DNA from: Mycoplasma sp. CAG:877
GTDB taxonomy: Bacteria > Bacillota_I > Bacilli_A > RF39 > UBA660
DNA: 64,000 nucleotides
Assembly: GCA_000433455.1 (NCBI GenBank)
Contig: HF992498.1
Coordinates: 49,922 to 113,921 of the forward strand
Direction: 5' to 3'
Shown: positions 15,315 to 43,108 of the stretch, piece after piece
Position numbering within the stretch: position 1 is the first letter of the stretch
Layout of the letters: the number at the start of each line of letters is the position of its first letter
The notes under the pieces: generated by a model
The model's input: the letters and a program-made list of their open reading frames with translations, nothing else
Told to the model about the DNA's origin: nothing
Databases searched by the model: none
Program-made: the position numbers and the translations under genes

Positions 15315-15391
15315 GGCGCCGTTGGTGAAGTGGTTAACACGCTAGTTTGTGGCACTAGTACGCAAGGGTTCGATTCCCTTACGACGCCCCA
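15315..15391 (+). tRNA. tRNA-His (anticodon GTG) with encoded G-1 and 3' CCA
   Basis: Folded by hand. The anticodon stem is CTAGT/ACTAG with loop TTGTGGC (anticodon GTG). The T arm is AAGGG-TTCGATT-CCCTT. The acceptor is GCGCCGT/ACGACGC (one C-A mismatch), with an extra 5' G opposite C73 and then CCA. Confidence 0.85.
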
Positions 15392-20241: not shown

Positions 20242-21993
20242 TTACTCAACTGTTACACTTTTCGCTAAATTTTTTGGTTTATCAATATCACAACCTCTTA
20301 TTTTAGCAACTTCATATGCTATTAATTGTAAACAAGGTACTACTAGTATTGGTTGTAAAAATTCACTAACTCTTGGTACTTTAATTAAATAGTCACACTC
20401 AAACCCATCTTCATTACTAACAACTATTATCATAGCTCCTCTAGCCTTAACTTCACAAATATTAGAAATTGTCTTTTCTCTAATATCATCCTCAGTAACA
20501 ATTGCAAAAACAGGTGTACCTTTATCTATTAAAGAAATAGTTCCATGTTTTAATTCTCCTGCCTGATAAGCCTCACTATGTATATAAGATACTTCTTTTA
20601 GTTTCAAACTTCCCTCTAAAGAAATAGCATAATCAATTTTTCTTCCTATAAAGAATATATCTTCTCTATTACTAATTTTTTTAGCTATTTCCAAATAAAT
20701 ATCTCTTCTATCAATAACCTCTTTTAATAAACGTGGTAATCTCTTCAACTCATCAACTATATCTTTTTTGCCAGCCACTCTACAAGCAAGTAGTGCCATA
20801 ACAGCGACTTGTAAAATATAAGCTTTCGTAGTAGCAACTGCTATTTCAGGACCAGCCTCAATAAATATTTGTCTATCACTTTCTCTAGCAATAGTTGATC
20901 CTTTTACATTAACAATTGCTAAAGTCAAAGCTCCATTTTCCTTAGCTTTCCTCATAGCAGCAATTGTATCAGCTGTCTCTCCTGATTGTGAAATAACTAT
21001 AACTAATGTCTTTCTATCATAAAGAATCTTTTTATAACGATATTCACTAGCAACTTCACATAAAACTCTAATATTAGAATTCTCTTCTAATAAGCTCTTA
21101 CCAATCATACCTGCATACATAGCAGAACCACACGCTACAATATGAATCTCTTCGTATCCACTAACATCAAATATATTATCAAAATTATCTATAAAAGGCT
21201 TTAAAGTCTTCTCAAGTACAACAGGCTCTTCCATTATTTCTTTTAACATATAATGTTCATAACCACACTTTTCTTTAGACTCAGCTGTTAACTCTGTAAC
21301 CAATACTTCTTTTTTTATTTCCTTATCATCTTTAACAACACTAATACCATTAAAATCTAAAGTAACAATTTCATTCTCATCTAATAAAGAATATCTATTA
21401 GTATAATTAATAATAGCCGAAATATCACTTGCTACAAAATATTCTTTATCTCCATACCCAACTATTAAAGGTAAATCTTTTCTAACTGCAAATAACTTAT
21501 CTTGATCCTTAAAAATAATTGCTAAGGCATATGATCCTCTAACATCATTAATAGCCCTCTCAATTGCCATAATTGGATCATTATCATAATAATAATCAAT
21601 TAAAGCAGTTAAAACTTCTGTATCAGTTTCAGTATTAAAAGTAACTCCCTCACTACTTAATTTTTCCTTCAATTCCATAGCATTTTCAATTATACCATTA
21701 TGAACTAATGTAACTCTTCCCACAGTATGAGGATGAGCATTAACCTCAGTAACACCACCATGAGTAGCCCATCTAGTATGAGCAATACCTATATGAGAAT
21801 AAATTAACTTTTCTTTATTAATCTTCTCCTCTAAAGAAGATATTCTTCCTACTTCTTTTATAACCTGAACAGAAGTATCATTTTTTAAAGCAATACCTGC
21901 AGAATCATATCCACGATATTCTAATGTTTTAAGTCCCTCTACAAGTACATCTTTAGGTTCCCTAAAACCTATATAACCTACTATTCCACACAT
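20242..21993 (-). CDS. glmS: Glutamine--fructose-6-phosphate aminotransferase GlmS
   Basis: N-terminal MCGIVGYIG (Ntn amidotransferase Cys), two SIS domains, C-terminal ..KPKNLAKSVTVE. Confidence 0.9.
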   Translation of the reverse strand: MCGIVGYIGFREPKDVLVEGLKTLEYRGYDSAGIALKNDTSVQVIKEVGRISSLEEKINKEKLIYSHIGIAHTRWATHGGVTEVNAHPHTVGRVTLVHNGIIENAMELKEKLSSEGVTFNTETDTEVLTALIDYYYDNDPIMAIERAINDVRGSYALAIIFKDQDKLFAVRKDLPLIVGYGDKEYFVASDISAIINYTNRYSLLDENEIVTLDFNGISVVKDDKEIKKEVLVTELTAESKEKCGYEHYMLKEIMEEPVVLEKTLKPFIDNFDNIFDVSGYEEIHIVACGSAMYAGMIGKSLLEENSNIRVLCEVASEYRYKKILYDRKTLVIVISQSGETADTIAAMRKAKENGALTLAIVNVKGSTIARESDRQIFIEAGPEIAVATTKAYILQVAVMALLACRVAGKKDIVDELKRLPRLLKEVIDRRDIYLEIAKKISNREDIFFIGRKIDYAISLEGSLKLKEVSYIHSEAYQAGELKHGTISLIDKGTPVFAIVTEDDIREKTISNICEVKARGAMIIVVSNEDGFECDYLIKVPRVSEFLQPILVVPCLQLIAYEVAKIRGCDIDKPKNLAKSVTVE

Positions 21994-22004: not shown

Positions 22005-22160
22005 CCTTAATATAAAAATAGTTCTGATATATTTCTTTGTTGTAATCTTGATTTTACTTTTTAAAATATATCTAACGAATAACTTAAATCCGTAGTAGAA
22101 TCCGCCGAATATTTCGATAAACTACTAACCTCGTCATCCTCATAGGATCTGGCGCTCAAA
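22005..22160 (-). ncRNA. glmS ribozyme (GlcN6P-dependent self-cleaving leader)
   Basis: The minus strand reads ..A/GCGCCAGATCC..GATGACGAGGTTAGTAGTTTATCGAAATATTCGGCGGATTCTACTACGG.. This reproduces the conserved AGCGCCAGA, GACGAGG, UAUCGAA and UUCGGCGGAU core blocks. It lies between the promoter and the glmS RBS. Confidence 0.85.
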
Positions 22161-22196
22161 TGAAAAATACAACCTTTCTAATTTCATTCTAATAAT

Positions 22197-37230: not shown

Positions 37231-37743
37231 ATGCTAACTTTAGTTATACCAGAATTAAAAGATTACTGGTATGAAAAAAAATTAAATGAAGATCCTGCTT
37301 CTATGAGTTATAATGCTGGATATGACGTTTCCTATTCTGGTTATCATTATGATACAGGAACAATTGACTTTCCTGAAGAAAATTTTGAAAAGACCTACAA
37401 CAAAAGAAAAGACAAAAACAAGTTTTTTGCCTACTTAAAAGACACAAAAACAAATGAATTTGTAGGCTATATAAATTACCAATTTAATAGTTCTGAAAAT
37501 TACTATGACTGTGGCATTTTAATAGAAGCTTCGAAAAGAGGAAAAGGTTATTCTAAAGAAGGTTTAAAATTATTGTGTGAAGCAGCCAAGAAAAATGGTA
37601 TTAAAGAATTATATGATAACTTTGAAAAAGATCGATATCATACTAAAGTATTTGAAGATGTTGGCTTTAAAGTAATAAAAGAAACTACTGGGAAAAAATT
37701 TGGTAAAGATGTTGAAGGAGTAATTGTAAAAATAGAATTATGA
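37231..37743 (+). CDS. GNAT family N-acetyltransferase
   Basis: ..CGILIEASKRGKGYSKEGLKLL.. is the acetyl-CoA binding motif. ATG 37231 lies behind GAGGTGA. It has an ATGA overlap with the next gene. Confidence 0.7.
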   Translation: MLTLVIPELKDYWYEKKLNEDPASMSYNAGYDVSYSGYHYDTGTIDFPEENFEKTYNKRKDKNKFFAYLKDTKTNEFVGYINYQFNSSENYYDCGILIEASKRGKGYSKEGLKLLCEAAKKNGIKELYDNFEKDRYHTKVFEDVGFKVIKETTGKKFGKDVEGVIVKIEL

Positions 37744-38642
37744 AAAAAGAAATATTAGAATATAAAGAACTCTTAAGAAAATGTTTTTCAAAAGAAACCG
37801 CTCATCCAAGTTGTCAAAATGACTATGAGAAAAATGATTGTTCTTATGGTCAATGTGCTATTACCTCTATGCTTGTATTTAAAAAGTTTGGTGGTACAAT
37901 AAACAAAATTAACTTAGATGAAGAATCTTCTCACTACTTTAATATTATTAATAATGAAATAATTGACTTAACAAAAGAACAATTTAAAGACCAATTAGAT
38001 TATTCAAATTATATTGAAAAAGATTTTAGTAGTCTTCTTCAAAATGAAAATACTAAAAAAAGATATTTTTTACTAAAAGAAAAAGTAAATCTAGCTCTTA
38101 TAGATCAAAAAATAGCTTCTTGCACTCTTTGCAAAGACTTAGTAGAACACTTTCCTAATAGTAAAACAATCTCCTTCGGAAAAACAAAAAAAATCTTAAT
38201 ATTAGGAGAAGCACCAGCTAACAATGGTTGGCGTAAATCTGGTATTGCTTGGTATGATCAAAATAAAAAATTACTACCATCAGGAGTAGTAATGCAAAAA
38301 CTATTAGACATTATAAATATTAAATTAGAAGACACTTACTTTTTAGAAGCCATAAAATGTTTCCCTAAAGAAAGAAAAAGTCTAAATATTTGTAGTAAAA
38401 ACTGTAAGACTTTTCTTATGAGGCAACTAGAAGAAATAAAACCTGAAATAGTCTTAGCATTAGGAGATGCCGCAACAAAAACAATTCTAGATACAAAATA
38501 CAAAAAATTCAGTGAAGTTGTTGATAAAGAATTTACTATAGACAATATAAAAGTAATTCCAATTTACCACCCATCACCTATATCACCATTAAGTTTAAAA
38601 GGAAACATTCCTATCTTTGAACAATTAAAAAAGACCATATAA
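37740..38642 (+). CDS. YunG-like N-terminal domain fused to family-4-type uracil-DNA glycosylase domain
   Basis: The N-terminal part is ..CSYGQCAITSMLVFKKFGGTI..SHYFNII..IDLTKEQF. The C-terminal part is ILILGEAPANNGW (GEAPG-like motif A) and IYHPSPISPLS (HPSPLS motif B). Confidence 0.6.
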   Translation: MKKEILEYKELLRKCFSKETAHPSCQNDYEKNDCSYGQCAITSMLVFKKFGGTINKINLDEESSHYFNIINNEIIDLTKEQFKDQLDYSNYIEKDFSSLLQNENTKKRYFLLKEKVNLALIDQKIASCTLCKDLVEHFPNSKTISFGKTKKILILGEAPANNGWRKSGIAWYDQNKKLLPSGVVMQKLLDIINIKLEDTYFLEAIKCFPKERKSLNICSKNCKTFLMRQLEEIKPEIVLALGDAATKTILDTKYKKFSEVVDKEFTIDNIKVIPIYHPSPISPLSLKGNIPIFEQLKKTI

Positions 38643-38643
38643 A

Positions 38644-38690
38644 AACTAGAGTTTGCAAAACGTCAAATATAAAACTCTAGTTTTTAATTT
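38644..38690. terminator. Bidirectional terminator between convergent genes
   Basis: AACTAGAGTT..19 nt..AACTCTAGTT with T-runs on both strands. Confidence 0.5.
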
Positions 38691-39184
38691 ACAATATTTC
38701 CATTTTTTTCTAACACTTTTATTTCTACTTCCTCACCATGTATTTTATAAGTTATTTTATTATGAATATTTTTTAAGTACAATGCTTTACCCATTTGACT
38801 ATTCAATGATATTTCTTGTATTGAACTTTCTAAGTCAGGTAAATATTTACCAGTCAATCTAACTTCAAAAACTTCAATATCATCTTCATCATAGATAACT
38901 TCAATTTTTAAAACATCTCCAACATTTATTACATCATTATTTTGTTTTATCTCACTAACCACTTTTAAATATCTTTTATCAACAAGCATTTTTTGTACTT
39001 TAGCACTTATTTTCTTCTCATCTCTCATAAGTTCTTCATATGCAAAGTTATCATGCCATCCATCTCCAACAGCATCTCTACATACATCAGCACCTACAGA
39101 AGCAATATTTTCTAAAGTACTTCTAAGCTCATCCAAAATATTCATAAATTGTTCATAACCATTTCTATCAACTAATATTTCCAT
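38684..39184 (-). CDS. GreA/GreB-family-like transcription factor
   Basis: An N-terminal coiled-coil with ..GDGWHDNFAYEELMRDE.. (Gre acidic-tip region pattern) and a C-terminal beta domain. Confidence 0.55.
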   Translation of the reverse strand: MEILVDRNGYEQFMNILDELRSTLENIASVGADVCRDAVGDGWHDNFAYEELMRDEKKISAKVQKMLVDKRYLKVVSEIKQNNDVINVGDVLKIEVIYDEDDIEVFEVRLTGKYLPDLESSIQEISLNSQMGKALYLKNIHNKITYKIHGEEVEIKVLEKNGNIVN

Positions 39185-39467
39185 GTCCTACTCACCTCCT
39201 TTCAATATTCATATGTCGCATATCACAAGAAAGTTCTGAAAAATATAAGAAATATTAGCGATAATTTTTTTTAGTCATTAACATTCAATAAAATATTAAC
39301 TTTTTCTTAACACCAAAATATTATCATAGGCATTTTATTTTTACAAGTATATTTTTTTTAACTTTTTTTAAATTCCTTCAAAGTTTTTTATATTTTTTTC
39401 GAATAATATAAGTAGGGAATACTAATGGATTCAAGTGCTTACCTCTTTAGAGAGGAGGTGATGTCAA

Positions 39468-39545
39468 ATGACTAAAAAGGAATACCTAATTCTTAGTCAA
39501 ATTATTATCATCATCTTGCTTATTATCACTCTACTATTCAGATAG
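39468..39545 (+). CDS. 25-aa hydrophobic peptide, type I toxin candidate (copy 1)
   Basis: GAGAGGAGGTGA lies 7 nt before the ATG. The peptide is MTKKEYLILSQIIIIILLIITLLFR. An upstream ACCTC anti-SD can pair with the SD. Confidence 0.55.
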   Translation: MTKKEYLILSQIIIIILLIITLLFR

Positions 39546-39551
39546 CGATGA

Positions 39552-39630
39552 TAAAAAAGAAAAAAGCACTTAATCAGCAATGTGATTAGGTGCTACCACC
39601 AACAAAGGGGTAAGTACTTAATACAGCACA
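39552..39630 (-). ncRNA. Candidate antisense antitoxin sRNA (copy 1), convergent with the toxin 3' UTR
   Basis: There is a minus-strand intrinsic terminator: AGCACCTAATCA-cattgc-TGATTAAGTGCT then TTTTTTCTTTTTT (3' end ~39552). Possible promoters are TTGAAT-17-TACTTA or TTGTAA-17-TACGAT further upstream. The 5' end is not determined. Confidence 0.4.
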
Positions 39631-39655
39631 TTAAGTATTCCCTATTTTTATTTTA
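39609..39655 (+). terminator. Terminator of toxin mRNA copy 1; also complementary to its own 5' end
   Basis: GTACTTAAT-acagcac-ATTAAGTAT followed by TCCCTATTTTTATTTTA. The reverse complement of 39609-39644 matches 39413-39443. Confidence 0.5.
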
Positions 39656-39828
39656 TTCAAGTTTCCTTGACATATTCATCGTATCATAGACCTTATACTT
39701 TTACAAGTATATTTTTCTTAACTTTTTTTTAAATTACTTCAAAGTTTTCTATATTTTTTTCGAATAATATAAGTAGGGAATACTAATGGATTCAAGTGCT
39801 TACCTCTTTAGAGAGGAGGTGATGTCAA

Positions 39829-39906
39829 ATGACTAAAAAGGAATACCTAATTCTTAGTCAAATTATTATCATCATCTTGCTTATTATCACTCTACTATTC
39901 AGATAA
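39829..39906 (+). CDS. 25-aa hydrophobic peptide, type I toxin candidate (copy 2)
   Basis: Same RBS and identical peptide to copy 1; the stop codon is TAA instead of TAG. Confidence 0.55.
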   Translation: MTKKEYLILSQIIIIILLIITLLFR

Positions 39907-39912
39907 TGATAA

Positions 39913-39990
39913 TAAAAAAGAAAAAAGCACTAAATCAGCAATGTGATTAAGTGCAAACCCAATTGAGGTAAGTACTTAATCGCACAAAAC
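39913..39990 (-). ncRNA. Candidate antisense antitoxin sRNA (copy 2)
   Basis: Equivalent minus-strand terminator (GCACTTAATCA-cattgc-TGATTTAGTGC + T-run). The body differs from copy 1. Confidence 0.4.
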
Positions 39991-40072
39991 ATTAAGTATT
40001 CCCTATTTTTATTTTATTCAAGTTTCCTTGACATATTCATCGTATCATAAACATCTAAACTTTACAAGACTA

Positions 40073-40600
40073 TTATTTTAAATAAAGTAAAGTGTTTTTA
40101 GTACTATTACCAAGAGTATCAGAATAATCAACTTCTCTTAATTTCTTAAAACCAGACTTTAAACACATATTAATAGAACTATCATTAGTACTTTGTACAT
40201 TCGCAATGACCATATCAAATTTTGAAAGTAAATACTTACTAATATATTTAACTACTCTAGTTCCAATTCCTAATCCATAAAAAGAACTATCCCCAATAAA
40301 AATATCTATTGAAACTACATCATCTAATAAAATACCAAAACGCTCTCTATCTTCTTCATCCATTTTCTCATACTGAACAAGTCCAATCTCCCTATCCTTG
40401 TAAACAATTATAAAAGGCTTTACTTCTTCATTACCTACTCTCCTCTTATATTTACTTACAACCTCATCATAACTTAAAATTCTCTGTTCAAAATACTTAT
40501 AAACACTAGGACTTAAACACCAATTATAAAGTCTCTTATATTCCTCTTCATTATCAACAATATCTCTTAAATAAATATCTTCATCTACATAAAGTCTCAT
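40073..40600 (-). CDS. GNAT family N-acetyltransferase (AAC(6')-like layout)
   Basis: ..IDIFIGDSSFYGLGIGTRVVKYI.. is the acetyl-CoA motif. ATG 40600 (MRLYVDE) lies behind GGTGA. Confidence 0.65.
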   Translation of the reverse strand: MRLYVDEDIYLRDIVDNEEEYKRLYNWCLSPSVYKYFEQRILSYDEVVSKYKRRVGNEEVKPFIIVYKDREIGLVQYEKMDEEDRERFGILLDDVVSIDIFIGDSSFYGLGIGTRVVKYISKYLLSKFDMVIANVQSTNDSSINMCLKSGFKKLREVDYSDTLGNSTKNTLLYLK

Positions 40601-40681
40601 TACAATCACCAACTTAATTATATAAAAACTAAAACTAAATCGCAGACAAAAAAAGAACCAACATAAATTGGTCCTTTATTT

Positions 40682-43108
40682 TTATTCATCTCTTAGACTT
40701 GCTCCACATTTCTTACCAAGTATTTCCATAATTACATCCATTGTCGAATTAATCTCTTCAGATGTTAAAGTAACATCACCATTACCTAGTAATACTCTTA
40801 ACATAACAGACTTCTTACCCTCTGGTACTTGATTACCCCTATACTCTTCAATAAACTTAACTTCTTTAACTTTATTTTTAATCGCAGTTGAAATACTTCT
40901 CCAAGTAACATCTTCATTAACTAAAATTGATAAATCTTTTTCAACTAATGGAACTTGTGATAAATGTGTAAATTTATTATCACGTGAAGCATTAGGTACT
41001 AATAATCCTGTATCTAATTCAAATACTGCTACATTAGTACGTTTAATCTTAGCCTCACTCATTGTCCTAATTGAAACTAATCCAAGTTTACCAACAACTT
41101 CTTGTCCAAGTAAAATATCCATATAAACATTTACATCAGCCCAACTTGGTTTTTCCTTACTAACCTCAAGTCTAATCTTCTCCATTTGTGTATATCCAGC
41201 CATCTTCTCTAAAACACCTTTTAATTCATAAAATATACGACTAGGATCTTTACCAACAATACATCCAGTCAATAACATCTTATGTATTGGTAAAGTCTCA
41301 TCTTCAGAAGATTCATGATATACACCCTTTTCAAATACTTGAGCCATTTCAAATAATCTGAAATAATCATAGTATCTTAAATTCTTAGAAATTGCTTCTA
41401 ACATACCAGGAACAAGTGAACTTCTTAAATATGCTTCCTCTGGTGATGGTGGAGTTGCTAGTTTAACTGAATTTTCTTTATTAATACCAGCAGCATTAAT
41501 ATACTTCTCATCTATCCAAGGATATGTAAATATTTCATTAAATCCACATCTATAAGCTAAGTATTCTCTTAATCTACGTTCAAGAGATTCTTTTCTTTGT
41601 AATACTGCATGCTCAAATGTAATAGTTAATGGTTTAGCTTCGAAACTTTCAAAACTTAAAAGTCTTGCTATATCACCCATTACATCATCTTTTAAATAAA
41701 CATCTCCTGTAGATCTCCATACTGGAACCACCACATGATAAATTCCATCTTTATATGTAACATCATATCCTAAATTTTTAAGAACTCTCTCAATTGTCTC
41801 TCTTCCTAATACTTTTCCTAATCTAACATTTAAGAACTCTTCAGGAACATCAATCTTTTCTCTTTCTGTCTTTATAGGATATACATCATTAAATGCTACT
41901 ACTTTACTTTCTGGGAATAATTCTTTGAATAACTCCAATGCTAAAGCTAACCCTTGATCTACTCTTTCAGTATCAATATTCTTCTCATATCTAATAGATG
42001 CATCAGTCTTTTCATCAAATCTCTTACCAGTTTTTCTAATAGTACCAGCTGTAAAATTAGCAACTTCTAATACAACACCAGTTGTCTCTGGTAAAATAGA
42101 ATCTTTCTTACCACCACGAATACCAGCAAGTGCCATAGCATCTTCTGTATCACAAATTACTAAGTCATCTTCTGTTAAAGTAATAGAATTGTTATCAAGT
42201 AATAATAACTCTTCATTTTTCTTAGCATTTCTAACTACAATCTTTTCTCCAACTACATGAGTTCTATCGAATGCATGTAAAGGTTGTCCTACAGCCATCA
42301 TTACATAATTAGTAATATCAACAATTGCACTAATTGGTCTCATACCACCATTAATTAAAGCAGCCTTCATCCACATAGGTGATTCTTTATCATATACATT
42401 TTCAATCTCAACTGCTGCATATCTATTACATTTTTCAGGTTCTTTTATTTCAACTTTATATTTAGGAAGTTTTGGATCAATCTTAGCAACTGGTAACTCT
42501 TTTAATGGTACATTATATATTGCTGATAATTCTCTTGCTATACCATAATGTCCCCATAAATCAGGTCTATTTGTTAAAGACTTATTATCTATTTCTAAAA
42601 CAACATCATCCATACAAATAACATCTGCAATATTTTGTCCAACTTTGCACTCATATCCTTTTAAATCAACTATTTCATCTTCACTCTTAGGTGGAAATAA
42701 TTGTTCTAGATAAACTTCAGTTGCTCCACAAATCATACCATATGATGAAACACCTCTCATATTAGATTCTTTAATCTTAACTAGACTAGCTTCACCATGC
42801 CAATAAACTTCAGCTCCAGGTTTTGATATAACTACATATTCTCCAACATATAAATTACATCCACCACATACGATTTGTACTGGCTTTTCTTCACCAATAT
42901 CAACCATACATACTTTTAATTTATCTGCATTAGGATGTTCATTAACTTCTAATATTTTACCAACAACAATATCATGAAATTTTTCTTTTGTATTTTCAAC
43001 AGACTCAACTTCAACAGTTCTTAAAGTTAAATCATAAGCTATTTGTTTTTCTGTTACTTCTTTTGGTAAATCAACATATTTTTTTACCCAATTTAATGAT
43101 ACTTTCAT
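40682..43108 (-). CDS. pheT: Phenylalanine--tRNA ligase beta subunit
   Basis: MKVSLNWVKKYVDL.. with tRNA-binding, B3/4, B5 and anticodon-binding-like regions. It directly follows pheS. Confidence 0.9.
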   Translation of the reverse strand: MKVSLNWVKKYVDLPKEVTEKQIAYDLTLRTVEVESVENTKEKFHDIVVGKILEVNEHPNADKLKVCMVDIGEEKPVQIVCGGCNLYVGEYVVISKPGAEVYWHGEASLVKIKESNMRGVSSYGMICGATEVYLEQLFPPKSEDEIVDLKGYECKVGQNIADVICMDDVVLEIDNKSLTNRPDLWGHYGIARELSAIYNVPLKELPVAKIDPKLPKYKVEIKEPEKCNRYAAVEIENVYDKESPMWMKAALINGGMRPISAIVDITNYVMMAVGQPLHAFDRTHVVGEKIVVRNAKKNEELLLLDNNSITLTEDDLVICDTEDAMALAGIRGGKKDSILPETTGVVLEVANFTAGTIRKTGKRFDEKTDASIRYEKNIDTERVDQGLALALELFKELFPESKVVAFNDVYPIKTEREKIDVPEEFLNVRLGKVLGRETIERVLKNLGYDVTYKDGIYHVVVPVWRSTGDVYLKDDVMGDIARLLSFESFEAKPLTITFEHAVLQRKESLERRLREYLAYRCGFNEIFTYPWIDEKYINAAGINKENSVKLATPPSPEEAYLRSSLVPGMLEAISKNLRYYDYFRLFEMAQVFEKGVYHESSEDETLPIHKMLLTGCIVGKDPSRIFYELKGVLEKMAGYTQMEKIRLEVSKEKPSWADVNVYMDILLGQEVVGKLGLVSIRTMSEAKIKRTNVAVFELDTGLLVPNASRDNKFTHLSQVPLVEKDLSILVNEDVTWRSISTAIKNKVKEVKFIEEYRGNQVPEGKKSVMLRVLLGNGDVTLTSEEINSTMDVIMEILGKKCGASLRDE

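Follow-up and report, generated by a model that had tools for sequence, protein, structure and literature searches.

We describe two adjoining 361-bp repeat units in a 64,000-nucleotide stretch of DNA from Mycoplasma sp. CAG:877 (contig HF992498.1, positions 49,922 to 113,921)—hereafter the window, whose numbering is used for all coordinates—and propose that each unit is probably a type I toxin-antitoxin (TA) module of a family not described so far. An earlier note, written from the letters of this DNA, had interpreted the region as tandem type I TA-like modules with an antisense RNA that overlaps the toxin messenger RNA (mRNA) at its 3' end; this interpretation is well supported here by a conserved minus-strand promoter, by a clamp between the two mRNA ends and an antisense terminator that both covary, and by coding-type variation in the open reading frame (ORF). 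The type I-like family, as traced by sequence, is widespread; relatives from metagenomes and metagenome-assembled genomes (MAGs) keep every element as the sequence changes, and those that must be told apart are named below by handles such as L068.

The two units are head-to-tail direct repeats with a 361-nt period and 95% identity (39352-39593 and 39713-39954), and the full-unit alignment likewise gives 95%. Their borders lie near 39340-39700 (unit 1) and 39701-40061 (unit 2), 361 bp each; the tandem duplication that the earlier note had placed at 39322-40057 is therefore real as two direct copies of about 360 bp, with borders that shift slightly to ~39340-40061. Both units sit between two minus-strand genes, one GreA-like (38684-39184) and the other GNAT (40073-40612), in source DNA with a GC content of about 27%. 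A 37-nt string comprising the Shine-Dalgarno (SD) sequence plus the start occurs exactly twice in the 64 kb, with 0 occurrences expected by chance, and a string scan together with a nucleotide profile finds only two unit copies in the window. The 5' untranslated region (UTR) and the ORF are identical in unit 1 and unit 2, and all differences within the transcript begin at the stop codon, as had been claimed of the peptide, the 5' UTR, and the variable 3' part; the promoter region differs by 6-7 substitutions and a 1-nt indel. A dispersed repeat or miniature inverted-repeat transposable element was considered as an alternative and dropped, since the window holds only these two copies.

The presumed toxin gene of unit 1 has, as read from the sequence, a plus-strand promoter with the -10 box TAATAT at 39404..39409, a weak -35, and a predicted start at G 39415-39416; unit 2 repeats the -10 box 361 nt further on, at 39765..39770 (+). 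Relatives carry TATAAT or TACTAT 6-7 nt upstream of the same 5' end, GGAACA or GGGAAT. The predicted toxin mRNA of unit 1 is about 240 nt long (39415..39655, +), an extent drawn from its fold and from a profile of the region that finds both window copies and all relatives; that of unit 2 spans 39776..40016 (+), drawn from the fold of 39777-40016. The strong SD and the 25-codon ORF noticed earlier are indeed present in both units: the SD region GAGAGGAGGTGA lies at 39450..39461 (unit 2: 39811-39822), with GGAGG at 39454-39458, and 6 nt after it comes the ATG of the unit 1 ORF (39468..39545, +), whose product MTKKEYLILSQIIIIILLIITLLFR is encoded again in unit 2 at 39829..39906 (+).

The encoded peptide has 25 residues, a grand average of hydropathy (GRAVY) of 1.63, and an uncharged stretch of 19 residues, and so belongs among small hydrophobic peptides (<~60 aa) with a predicted transmembrane (TM) helix; its relatives have 26-31 residues. 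Among the eight ORF differences seen across the species and its sister lineage, five are synonymous (AAG/AAA, TAC/TAT, CTA/TTA at two codons, and GAT/GAC) and the remaining three are conservative (E5D, D5N, and R25K). This within-species pattern fits a translated ORF—by its substitutions, the peptide appears to evolve like coding sequence. In every lineage GGAGG stands 7-9 nt before an ATG.

In computed folds, the unit 1 mRNA model (39401-39656) comes out at -82.1 kcal/mol, compared with -43.5 +/- 4.3 in shuffles (z = -8.96), and the unit 2 model (39777-40016) at -69.5 kcal/mol (z = -8.99); relatives give z = -10.4 and -7.0. In the unit 1 fold, about 45 nt at each end pair with one another, the 5' part at ~39405-39448 and the 3' part at ~39604-39652. 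The 5' clamp arm (39415..39448, +), which includes the anti-SD ACCTC at 39441-39445, pairs with 39604-39642; the 3' clamp arm (39604..39657, +) is at the same time the mRNA terminator, consisting of a hairpin (39604-39642) followed by a T-run (39643-39657), and is indicated by sequence, fold, and covariation. The 5'-3' long-distance pairing proposed earlier thus recurs in the full-length folds of both units (z ~ -9) and in a clamp that covaries.

The SD appears to be held by more than one lock. The earlier note had assigned its sequestration to ACCTC, and this hairpin does form one lock; however, a second conserved helix pairs the SD with codons of the ORF itself, through an internal anti-SD, AUCAUCAUCUU, that lies in Ile/Leu codons at 39507..39517 (+) and forms the third helix of the consensus structure. 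For the nascent 5' fragment the fold joins ACCTC (39441-39445) to the SD, whose probability of being unpaired is 0.00. The minimum-energy fold of the full-length unit 1 mRNA shows other partners, namely GGGG of the 3' arm for CCUC and AUCAUCA (39507-39513), within the ORF, for the SD; the probability of an unpaired SD in the full-length mRNA is 0.24 in unit 1, 0.19 in unit 2, and 0.25 in the sister lineage L068. The toxin mRNA is therefore predicted to sequester its SD both as a nascent chain (0.00) and, in the window and L068, at full length (0.19-0.25). When the 3' overlap is blocked, which mimics bound antisense RNA, CCUCU:AGAGG re-forms and the probability falls from 0.24 to 0.10 in unit 1, from 0.19 to 0.05 in unit 2, and from 0.25 to 0.11 in L068.

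Damaged copies bear on these same elements. GGAGG is kept across relatives and mutated in two copies, one of which also carries a deletion in the ORF. In that copy (L026_u1/L030; L026:3560-3785 and L030:3-228, both on the minus strand) the SD reads GAAGAGG in place of GGAGG, and an 18-nt in-frame deletion removes the internal anti-SD except for its last base and shortens the helix to 19 aa. From its sequence the variant looks like a step-wise inactivation; a fitting course would be a derepressing loss, with the SD weakened later or at the same time. In the other copy (L126_u2) GGAGG has become GAAGG. A further copy, L130, has a premature stop, and a one-base frame shift would restore a hydrophobic ORF of ~28 codons.

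Just past the mRNA 3' end lies a minus-strand extended -10 promoter that is absent from the earlier note. Antisense promoter 1 (39706-39678, -) consists of TTGTAA (39706-39701), a 17-nt spacer ending in TGA, and TACGAT (39683-39678); antisense promoter 2 (40067-40039, -) has the same make-up, with TTGTAA at 40067-40062 and TACGAT at 40044-40039. The layout TTGnnn-N14-TGn-TAnnAT stands at this place in nine of the ten units read, the promoter of L176 being less clear, and a minus-strand terminator stands at the same place in all ten. On the plus strand, AAAAAAGAAAAAA and, after it, an 11-bp hairpin occupy 39553-39593, starting 6-8 nt past the toxin stop codon; in minus-strand orientation they make up terminator 1 (39593..39553), with the hairpin at 39593-39566 and then the T-run TTTTTTCTTTTTT at 39565-39553. 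Terminator 2 (39954..39914, -) has its hairpin at 39954-39927 and its T-run at 39926-39914. The terminator hairpin forms in the computed folds and its helix covaries, so the convergent minus-strand intrinsic terminator of the earlier note holds for both units.

Bounded by this conserved promoter and terminator, the predicted antitoxin RNA 1 would be about 120 nt long (39673..39553, -) and would overlap about 100 nt of the toxin 3' UTR (39553-39655), leaving the ORF outside; the predicted antitoxin RNA 2 spans 40034..39914 (-). Outside the mRNA overlap, RNA 1 folds into a 5' hairpin, CAAG-GAAA-CUUG (39669..39658, -), whose closing pairs change in relatives, to GAAGGAAACUUC in L076 and GCAAGGAAACUUGC in L130. 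A consensus scan of L076 called both toxin promoters (11/12 matches), both antisense promoters with their TG, and both minus-strand terminators (2 found, 0.1 expected), and the scan of L130 called the antisense promoter. Between the GNAT stop (40073) and unit 2 no terminator is seen by eye (40036-40073, -). Read-through from GNAT, carrying the unit 2 antisense sequence as a 3' UTR as far as 39914-39954, is a possible second source of antitoxin.

The antisense promoters also mark the repeat borders. The strings TTTACAAG at the unit borders are the -35 boxes of the antisense promoters, and a third, paralogous promoter can be read at the left border of unit 1 (39346-39318, -), with TTGTAA, a 17-nt spacer, and TGA followed by TAATAT. 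Because of this third copy and of the repeat family D2, with its three copies at 39263, 39623, and 39984, we take the units to be delimited by paralogous promoters. The left-border promoter faces the GreA-like gene (39184..38684), which is apparently driven by a paralogue of the antisense promoters, the repeat units starting and ending at copies of this promoter. Gain or loss of a unit between strains, which have one or two, may proceed by recombination between the promoter copies.

Relatives were sought through neighbouring genes, DNA patterns, and a nucleotide profile, and then through a protein profile. Contigs that encode an identical GreA-like protein (metagenome assemblies, several labelled human gut) carry the same locus with one or two units, and in the sister lineage L068 (PheT 95% and GreA-like protein 78% identical) this place holds two units. 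Scanning metagenome contigs with a degenerate pattern, together with the nucleotide profile, yielded L076, with two diverged tandem units (MVKKRDYVCRVLLYIAIILFLLLAIIIEIKK and MSKKDYLILLLFVIIFLLIALLFVVLK), as well as L130 and L144 (MNKKDYLIFSLVVMLFLQDILLLFAILALK), with one unit each. An over-long ORF call from L076, used as a query, led to three proteins, and a profile of these against 1.84 billion cluster representatives led to 31 clusters at 50% identity. All 31 are mis-called longer ORFs whose N-terminal parts translate the 5' clamp, as GTFNKLG or GTFNSWV (from GGAACATTTAAT.AGTTGGGTG), and the SD, as KGGD; the real peptides follow MxKKD(F/L/Y)LI.SL.IIIFLL..LLF.VL(I/K) and have 26-27 residues. 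Family members are called only as ORFs of 41-143 aa (P0046-P0077), nearly all of which start in the 5' UTR while a few overrun the C-terminus. The annotation artefact GTFNKLG...KGGD can itself be used for finding more members.

The DNA of two further relatives, L166 and L176, was read and holds one unit each with the full layout. Across the eight diverged unit types read, a hydrophobic ORF of 25-31 codons is open in seven, L130 with its premature stop being the other, and the product starts with MxKK(D/E)(Y/F/L) and continues as a hydrophobic helix while the nucleotides change. Looking for the peptide and its flanking structure in related genomes, a check that had been suggested at the outset, thus returned relatives with the same layout and 31 protein clusters. 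A genome-contig scan for M-x-K-K-E-Y after GGAGG gave chance matches in longer genes only; since in most members position 5 is D and position 6 is F, L, or Y, this pattern is too narrow and the scan is uninformative on species-representative genomes.

The genomic contexts of these members differ. The module lies between pheT and the GreA-like gene in the window and L068, upstream of trpS in L130 (with a XRE/VanZ-like membrane protein gene on its other side), between gyrB and gyrA in L176, beside a SpoIID-like gene in L144 (assigned by eye from a sequence motif), and between GNAT and HAD genes in L166. In L176 (2501-2855) the member fills the gyrB-gyrA intergenic region on the opposite strand. 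The L166 member, MSKKDFLVFSLIIIILLLIALLFVILN, found on L166:1-6231 (NCBI MAG GCA_910584255.1, CAJTXV010000036.1), lies at most 3 kb from genes for a Mob_Pre relaxase and a TrwB/DUF87-like ATPase; unlike the members in core-gene contexts, it may reside on a mobilisable element. Pattern scans of IMG/VR viral contigs found no copy, giving chance matches in coding sequence only, and blastn of the unit against plasmid and phage record collections found no match. A leader or attenuator of the GreA-like gene was also considered and dropped, as the module lies on the other strand and recurs in unrelated contexts. The GNAT gene between pheT and the module (40073-40612, -) varies among strains, with called products of 172, 175, and 196 aa (L025-L029) and 179 aa in the window, and no match to the window GNAT was found in L068; its position looks like a variable spot beside a core operon.

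Covariation was assessed on ten transcripts of the eight diverged unit types, in a MAFFT alignment (A5) that was not fitted to structure and from which RNAalifold derived four helices. Clamp helix 1 (A5 columns 5-12 with 252-259) is paired in 100% of cells and has two pairs changed on both sides; clamp helix 2 (columns 20-33 with 223-236) is paired in 93% and has six. The helix between the SD and the internal anti-SD (columns 54-63 with 114-124) is paired in 91%, with one pair changed on both sides and mostly G-C/G-U changes, and the 3' UTR hairpin that forms the minus-strand terminator (columns 174-184 with 194-204) is paired in 94%, with four pairs changed on both sides. Taken together, 94.2% of cells are paired, compared with 35-50% when the partners are slid by 1-3 columns; double changes amount to 13 pairs and 34 cells, compared with 6.5 and 11.2 in shuffles, of which 0 in 500 attain the observed value. 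Results from two earlier alignments were similar. By these comparisons covariation lends good, if not conclusive, support to the predicted clamp, the 3' UTR hairpin, and the SD-ORF helix.

From these elements we infer two transcripts, a toxic product, a dependence on RNase III, and a refolding step. The plus-strand promoter, with its good -10 and weak -35, would produce an mRNA of ~240 nt that encodes the 25-residue, single-helix membrane peptide, our presumed toxin. During transcription the ACCUC anti-SD would form a hairpin with the SD; once the mRNA is complete, its first ~34 nt would pair with its last ~40 nt, in a clamp that probably stabilises and compacts the RNA, and the helix with the internal anti-SD would serve as a second lock on the SD. 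The minus-strand extended -10 promoter would produce an RNA of ~120 nt with a 5' GNRA hairpin and a body fully complementary to ~100 nt of the 3' UTR, the 3' clamp arm among them; this RNA would end at its own terminator directly after the toxin stop codon. By analogy with txpA/RatA, bsrG/SR4, and yonT/SR6, the long duplex of mRNA and antisense RNA would be cut by RNase III. Antisense pairing would also free the 5' arm, so that ACCUC could re-close on the SD—the sequence of the antisense body is almost that of the mRNA 5' arm, and hence antisense binding must displace that arm. The computed refolding weakly suggests that this step adds a translational block, as SR4 does on bsrG.

A bolder version, which we regard as conceivable yet doubtful, is that the antitoxin acts as a mimic of the mRNA 5' end: it would compete for the 3' arm, open the clamp, and hand CCUC over from GGGG/GAGG to the SD. 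If this were true, one RNA would both mark the mRNA for RNase III and reset its translational lock, and a hok-type clamp would be combined with a bsrG/SR4-type 3' antisense RNA. We know of no described type I family that combines these two features.

The two units had also been read in the earlier note as cognate-specific toxin-antitoxin pairs, a claim that the data do not support. The predicted antisense RNAs 1 and 2 are 86% identical, differing at 17 of 126 aligned positions (8 predicted unpaired and 9 predicted paired), and share an identical 5' stretch of 47 nt. Duplex energies are -175 and -166 kcal/mol for the cognate pairs compared with -118 and -124 kcal/mol for the non-cognate pairs; strict cognate specificity was dropped as a candidate. 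Both 3' UTR types, A and B, turn up again in other strains, in single copy or as mosaics; L072, for example, carries type B alone, and in L092 the spacers of both units are A-like. Allelic recombination accompanied by gene conversion in the 5' half accounts for this no less well than does selection for orthogonality. Types A and B might conceivably be orthogonal recognition alleles under diversifying selection.

Several points weigh against a type I module. The covariation rests on about eight lineages and thus on few independent events, and the window toxin promoter, as far as its sequence can be judged, is without a good -35. The consensus terminator scan called 0 sites for either of the minus-strand hairpins in the window, which it missed because of one mismatch in each stem. 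Folding predicts an SD that is mainly paired whatever the state (probability unpaired in unit 1: 0.24, 0.10, and 0.00), and blocking the 3' overlap brings no drop in SD accessibility in two of six lineages (L076, 0.08 to 0.09; L130, 0.45 to 0.48). The translated peptide would be at the short end of the type I toxin range and, in the window species, would have a single C-terminal charged residue, unlike the charged C-terminal cluster that is usual in type I toxins (PMC6563280). This last trait would suit a harmless or housekeeping small membrane protein (an accessory subunit, for instance, or a stress peptide) whose level a cis-antisense RNA adjusts without any TA relationship, as would the facts that the RNA elements and the ORF are what is conserved, with toxicity only predicted, and that the modules adjoin core genes (pheST, trpS, and gyrB-gyrA) and no copy was found in the viral contigs or the phage and plasmid records. 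We nevertheless consider such a protein unlikely. A set of several translational locks, here two anti-SDs, the clamp, and an antisense RNA driven by the better promoter, typifies toxin genes (PMC8594479; PMC5416894), and tandem duplication in one intergenic region is a known type I trait (PMC2887945); strains differ in copy number (1 or 2 units), in some copies mutations weaken the SD or disrupt the ORF, and one member (L166) lies beside Mob_Pre and TrwB-like genes.

The ORF might instead be incidental to a structured non-coding RNA or a repeated intergenic element. The strongest statistics, fold z-scores and covariation, concern the RNA, and in 27% GC DNA a 25-codon frame has a chance probability of about 0.11 of staying open. 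An incidental ORF would have to be reconciled, however, with the spacing of GGAGG and ATG in every lineage, with a frame open in seven of eight diverged unit types, with a peptide start and hydrophobic helix that are kept despite nucleotide change, and with differences that are synonymous or conservative; moreover, the unit has no Rfam match and, with two copies in the window, is not dispersed. We judge this explanation to be very improbable. It is harder still to credit that there is no dedicated antisense RNA, the minus-strand hairpin and T-run being simply the GNAT terminator and the promoter-like sites copies of the promoter of the GreA-like gene. With no terminator seen between the GNAT stop and unit 2, GNAT read-through would indeed end at 39914-39954, and the left-border promoter that faces the GreA-like gene is a paralogue of the antisense promoters; yet the set of promoter, hairpin, and terminator keeps its position relative to the ORF among differing neighbours in L130, L176, and L166, and the upstream neighbour of unit 1, both in the window and in L076, is another unit. 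A type I TA module remains our preferred explanation.

The family would be new but its kind is ordinary, and another type I family would not surprise a specialist. The species of the window is seen in metagenome assemblies only, several of which are labelled human gut, and to our knowledge little has been mapped of type I systems in uncultured bacteria of this sort. The comparative data provide a directly testable model that specifies promoters, transcript ends, three covarying helices, and two anti-SD elements, and they pose a mechanistic question—how a 3' antisense RNA and a 5'-3' clamp interact. From the RNA alignment one could start both an Rfam family and a small-protein model, and with them put right the annotation of over-long ORFs. 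Short portable modules of this kind are also reported to serve as counter-selection and RNA-device parts (PMC12721322).

Elsewhere in the window, a perfect 15-nt inverted repeat (TAAAAACTAGAGTTT / AAACTCTAGTTTTTA) at 38640-38686 lies between the convergent genes 37740..38642 (+) and 38684..39184 (-) and is probably a bidirectional terminator. The source carries a glmS ribozyme at 22017-22167 (-), scoring 70 bits, upstream of a 583-aa ORF at 20242..21993, and a single tRNA gene at 15316-15388 (+); no other Rfam match in the window exceeds the gathering score.

At the module itself, database searches gave nothing of note. The gathering-threshold Rfam search of the whole window found nothing there, and Rfam 15 searched with E up to 10 over 38000-41500 gave chance matches only (best 23 bits, gathering score 55). 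Twelve family peptides searched against Pfam and NCBIfam with E up to 10 gave only chance TM matches far below the cut-offs, searches of PHROGs and the PDB gave no meaningful match to family peptides, and a full-text motif search found the peptide motifs in no indexed paper. The remark in the earlier note that the peptide matches no named toxin family therefore stands, and because membership of any named family fails every sequence test, we speak of a new family within a known class.

In Clostridioides difficile, type I toxin and antitoxin genes are convergent and overlapping. Pairs such as CD0956.2/RCd10 and CD2517.1/RCd8 resemble the present modules in belonging to low-GC Firmicutes and encoding small hydrophobic membrane toxins; in contrast, their toxins have 34-59 residues and charged C-termini, are found in prophages or beside CRISPR arrays (PMC6563280), and have no similarity to the peptides here. 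The Escherichia coli systems Ibs/Sib, Ldr/Rdl, and Zor/Orz likewise have short hydrophobic toxins, tandem copies in one intergenic region, and strain-variable copy number (PMC2887945); however, they come from a different phylum, have no sequence similarity, and have antisense RNAs that cover the ORF or lie at the 5' side (PMC8594479). Closer in geometry are Fst/RNAII (par of pAD1) and SprA1/SprA1as, Firmicutes systems with a convergent 3' overlap that excludes the ORF, as here (PMC8594479), and chromosomal copies are often tandem (PMC2887945). In these two systems the productive interaction lies outside the overlap (PMC8594479), whereas the antisense RNA here resembles the mRNA 5' end and is not complementary to it. 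In Fst the interaction joins the mRNA 5' region to the antitoxin 5' region, and its two RNAs share one bidirectional terminator, while the modules here have separate ones at 39553-39593 (-) and 39604-39657 (+). Membership of the Fst/Ldr superfamily is not indicated by any Pfam, NCBIfam, or Rfam match, and the tryptophan after the TM helix and the charged cluster that mark this superfamily (PMC2887945) are absent from all family peptides.

In hok/Sok of plasmid R1 and aapA1/IsoA1 of Helicobacter pylori, metastable 5' hairpins prevent co-transcriptional translation. The full-length mRNA fold of these systems blocks translation and 5'-3' pairing is key to it (PMC8594479; PMC5416894). The same 5'-3' pairing is found here, the clamp helices being paired in 100% and 93% of cells. 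The resemblance concerns the working of the RNA and is not one of homology; both systems come from Gram-negative bacteria and have no sequence similarity to the present family. A further difference is that the hok/Sok and AapA/IsoA antisense RNAs lie within the mRNA at the 5' or ORF side (PMC8594479) and 3' trimming activates the message, whereas here the antisense RNA lies at the 3' UTR and targets the 3' arm.

The B. subtilis systems txpA/RatA, bsrG/SR4, bsrE/SR5, and yonT/SR6 have the same convergent layout, with the antisense RNA pairing at the toxin 3' end; T1TAdb records an antisense RNA on the 3' side for Fst/RNAII, TxpA/RatA, YonT, SprA1, SprG, and BsrE/G/H (PMC8594479). The present family has no peptide, RNA sequence, or profile similarity to those of B. 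subtilis, and it differs in toxin length (25-31 residues, compared with 28-60; PMC6563280), in an overlap that excludes the ORF, unlike the overlaps of TxpA, YonT, and BsrE/G/H (PMC8594479), in an antisense target that includes the 3' arm of a 5'-3' clamp, and in loci that lie mostly between core genes and not in prophages. SR6, at 100 nt, overlaps about 65 nt of yonT, and both promoters of yonT/SR6 have an extended -10; the antitoxins RatA, SR4, SR5, and SR6 all recruit RNase III, and SR4 in addition alters the structure around the ribosome-binding site (PMC5848175). This effect of SR4 on bsrG resembles the refolding step proposed above, and by layout yonT/SR6 and bsrG/SR4 are the closest known systems to the modules described here (PMC5848175).

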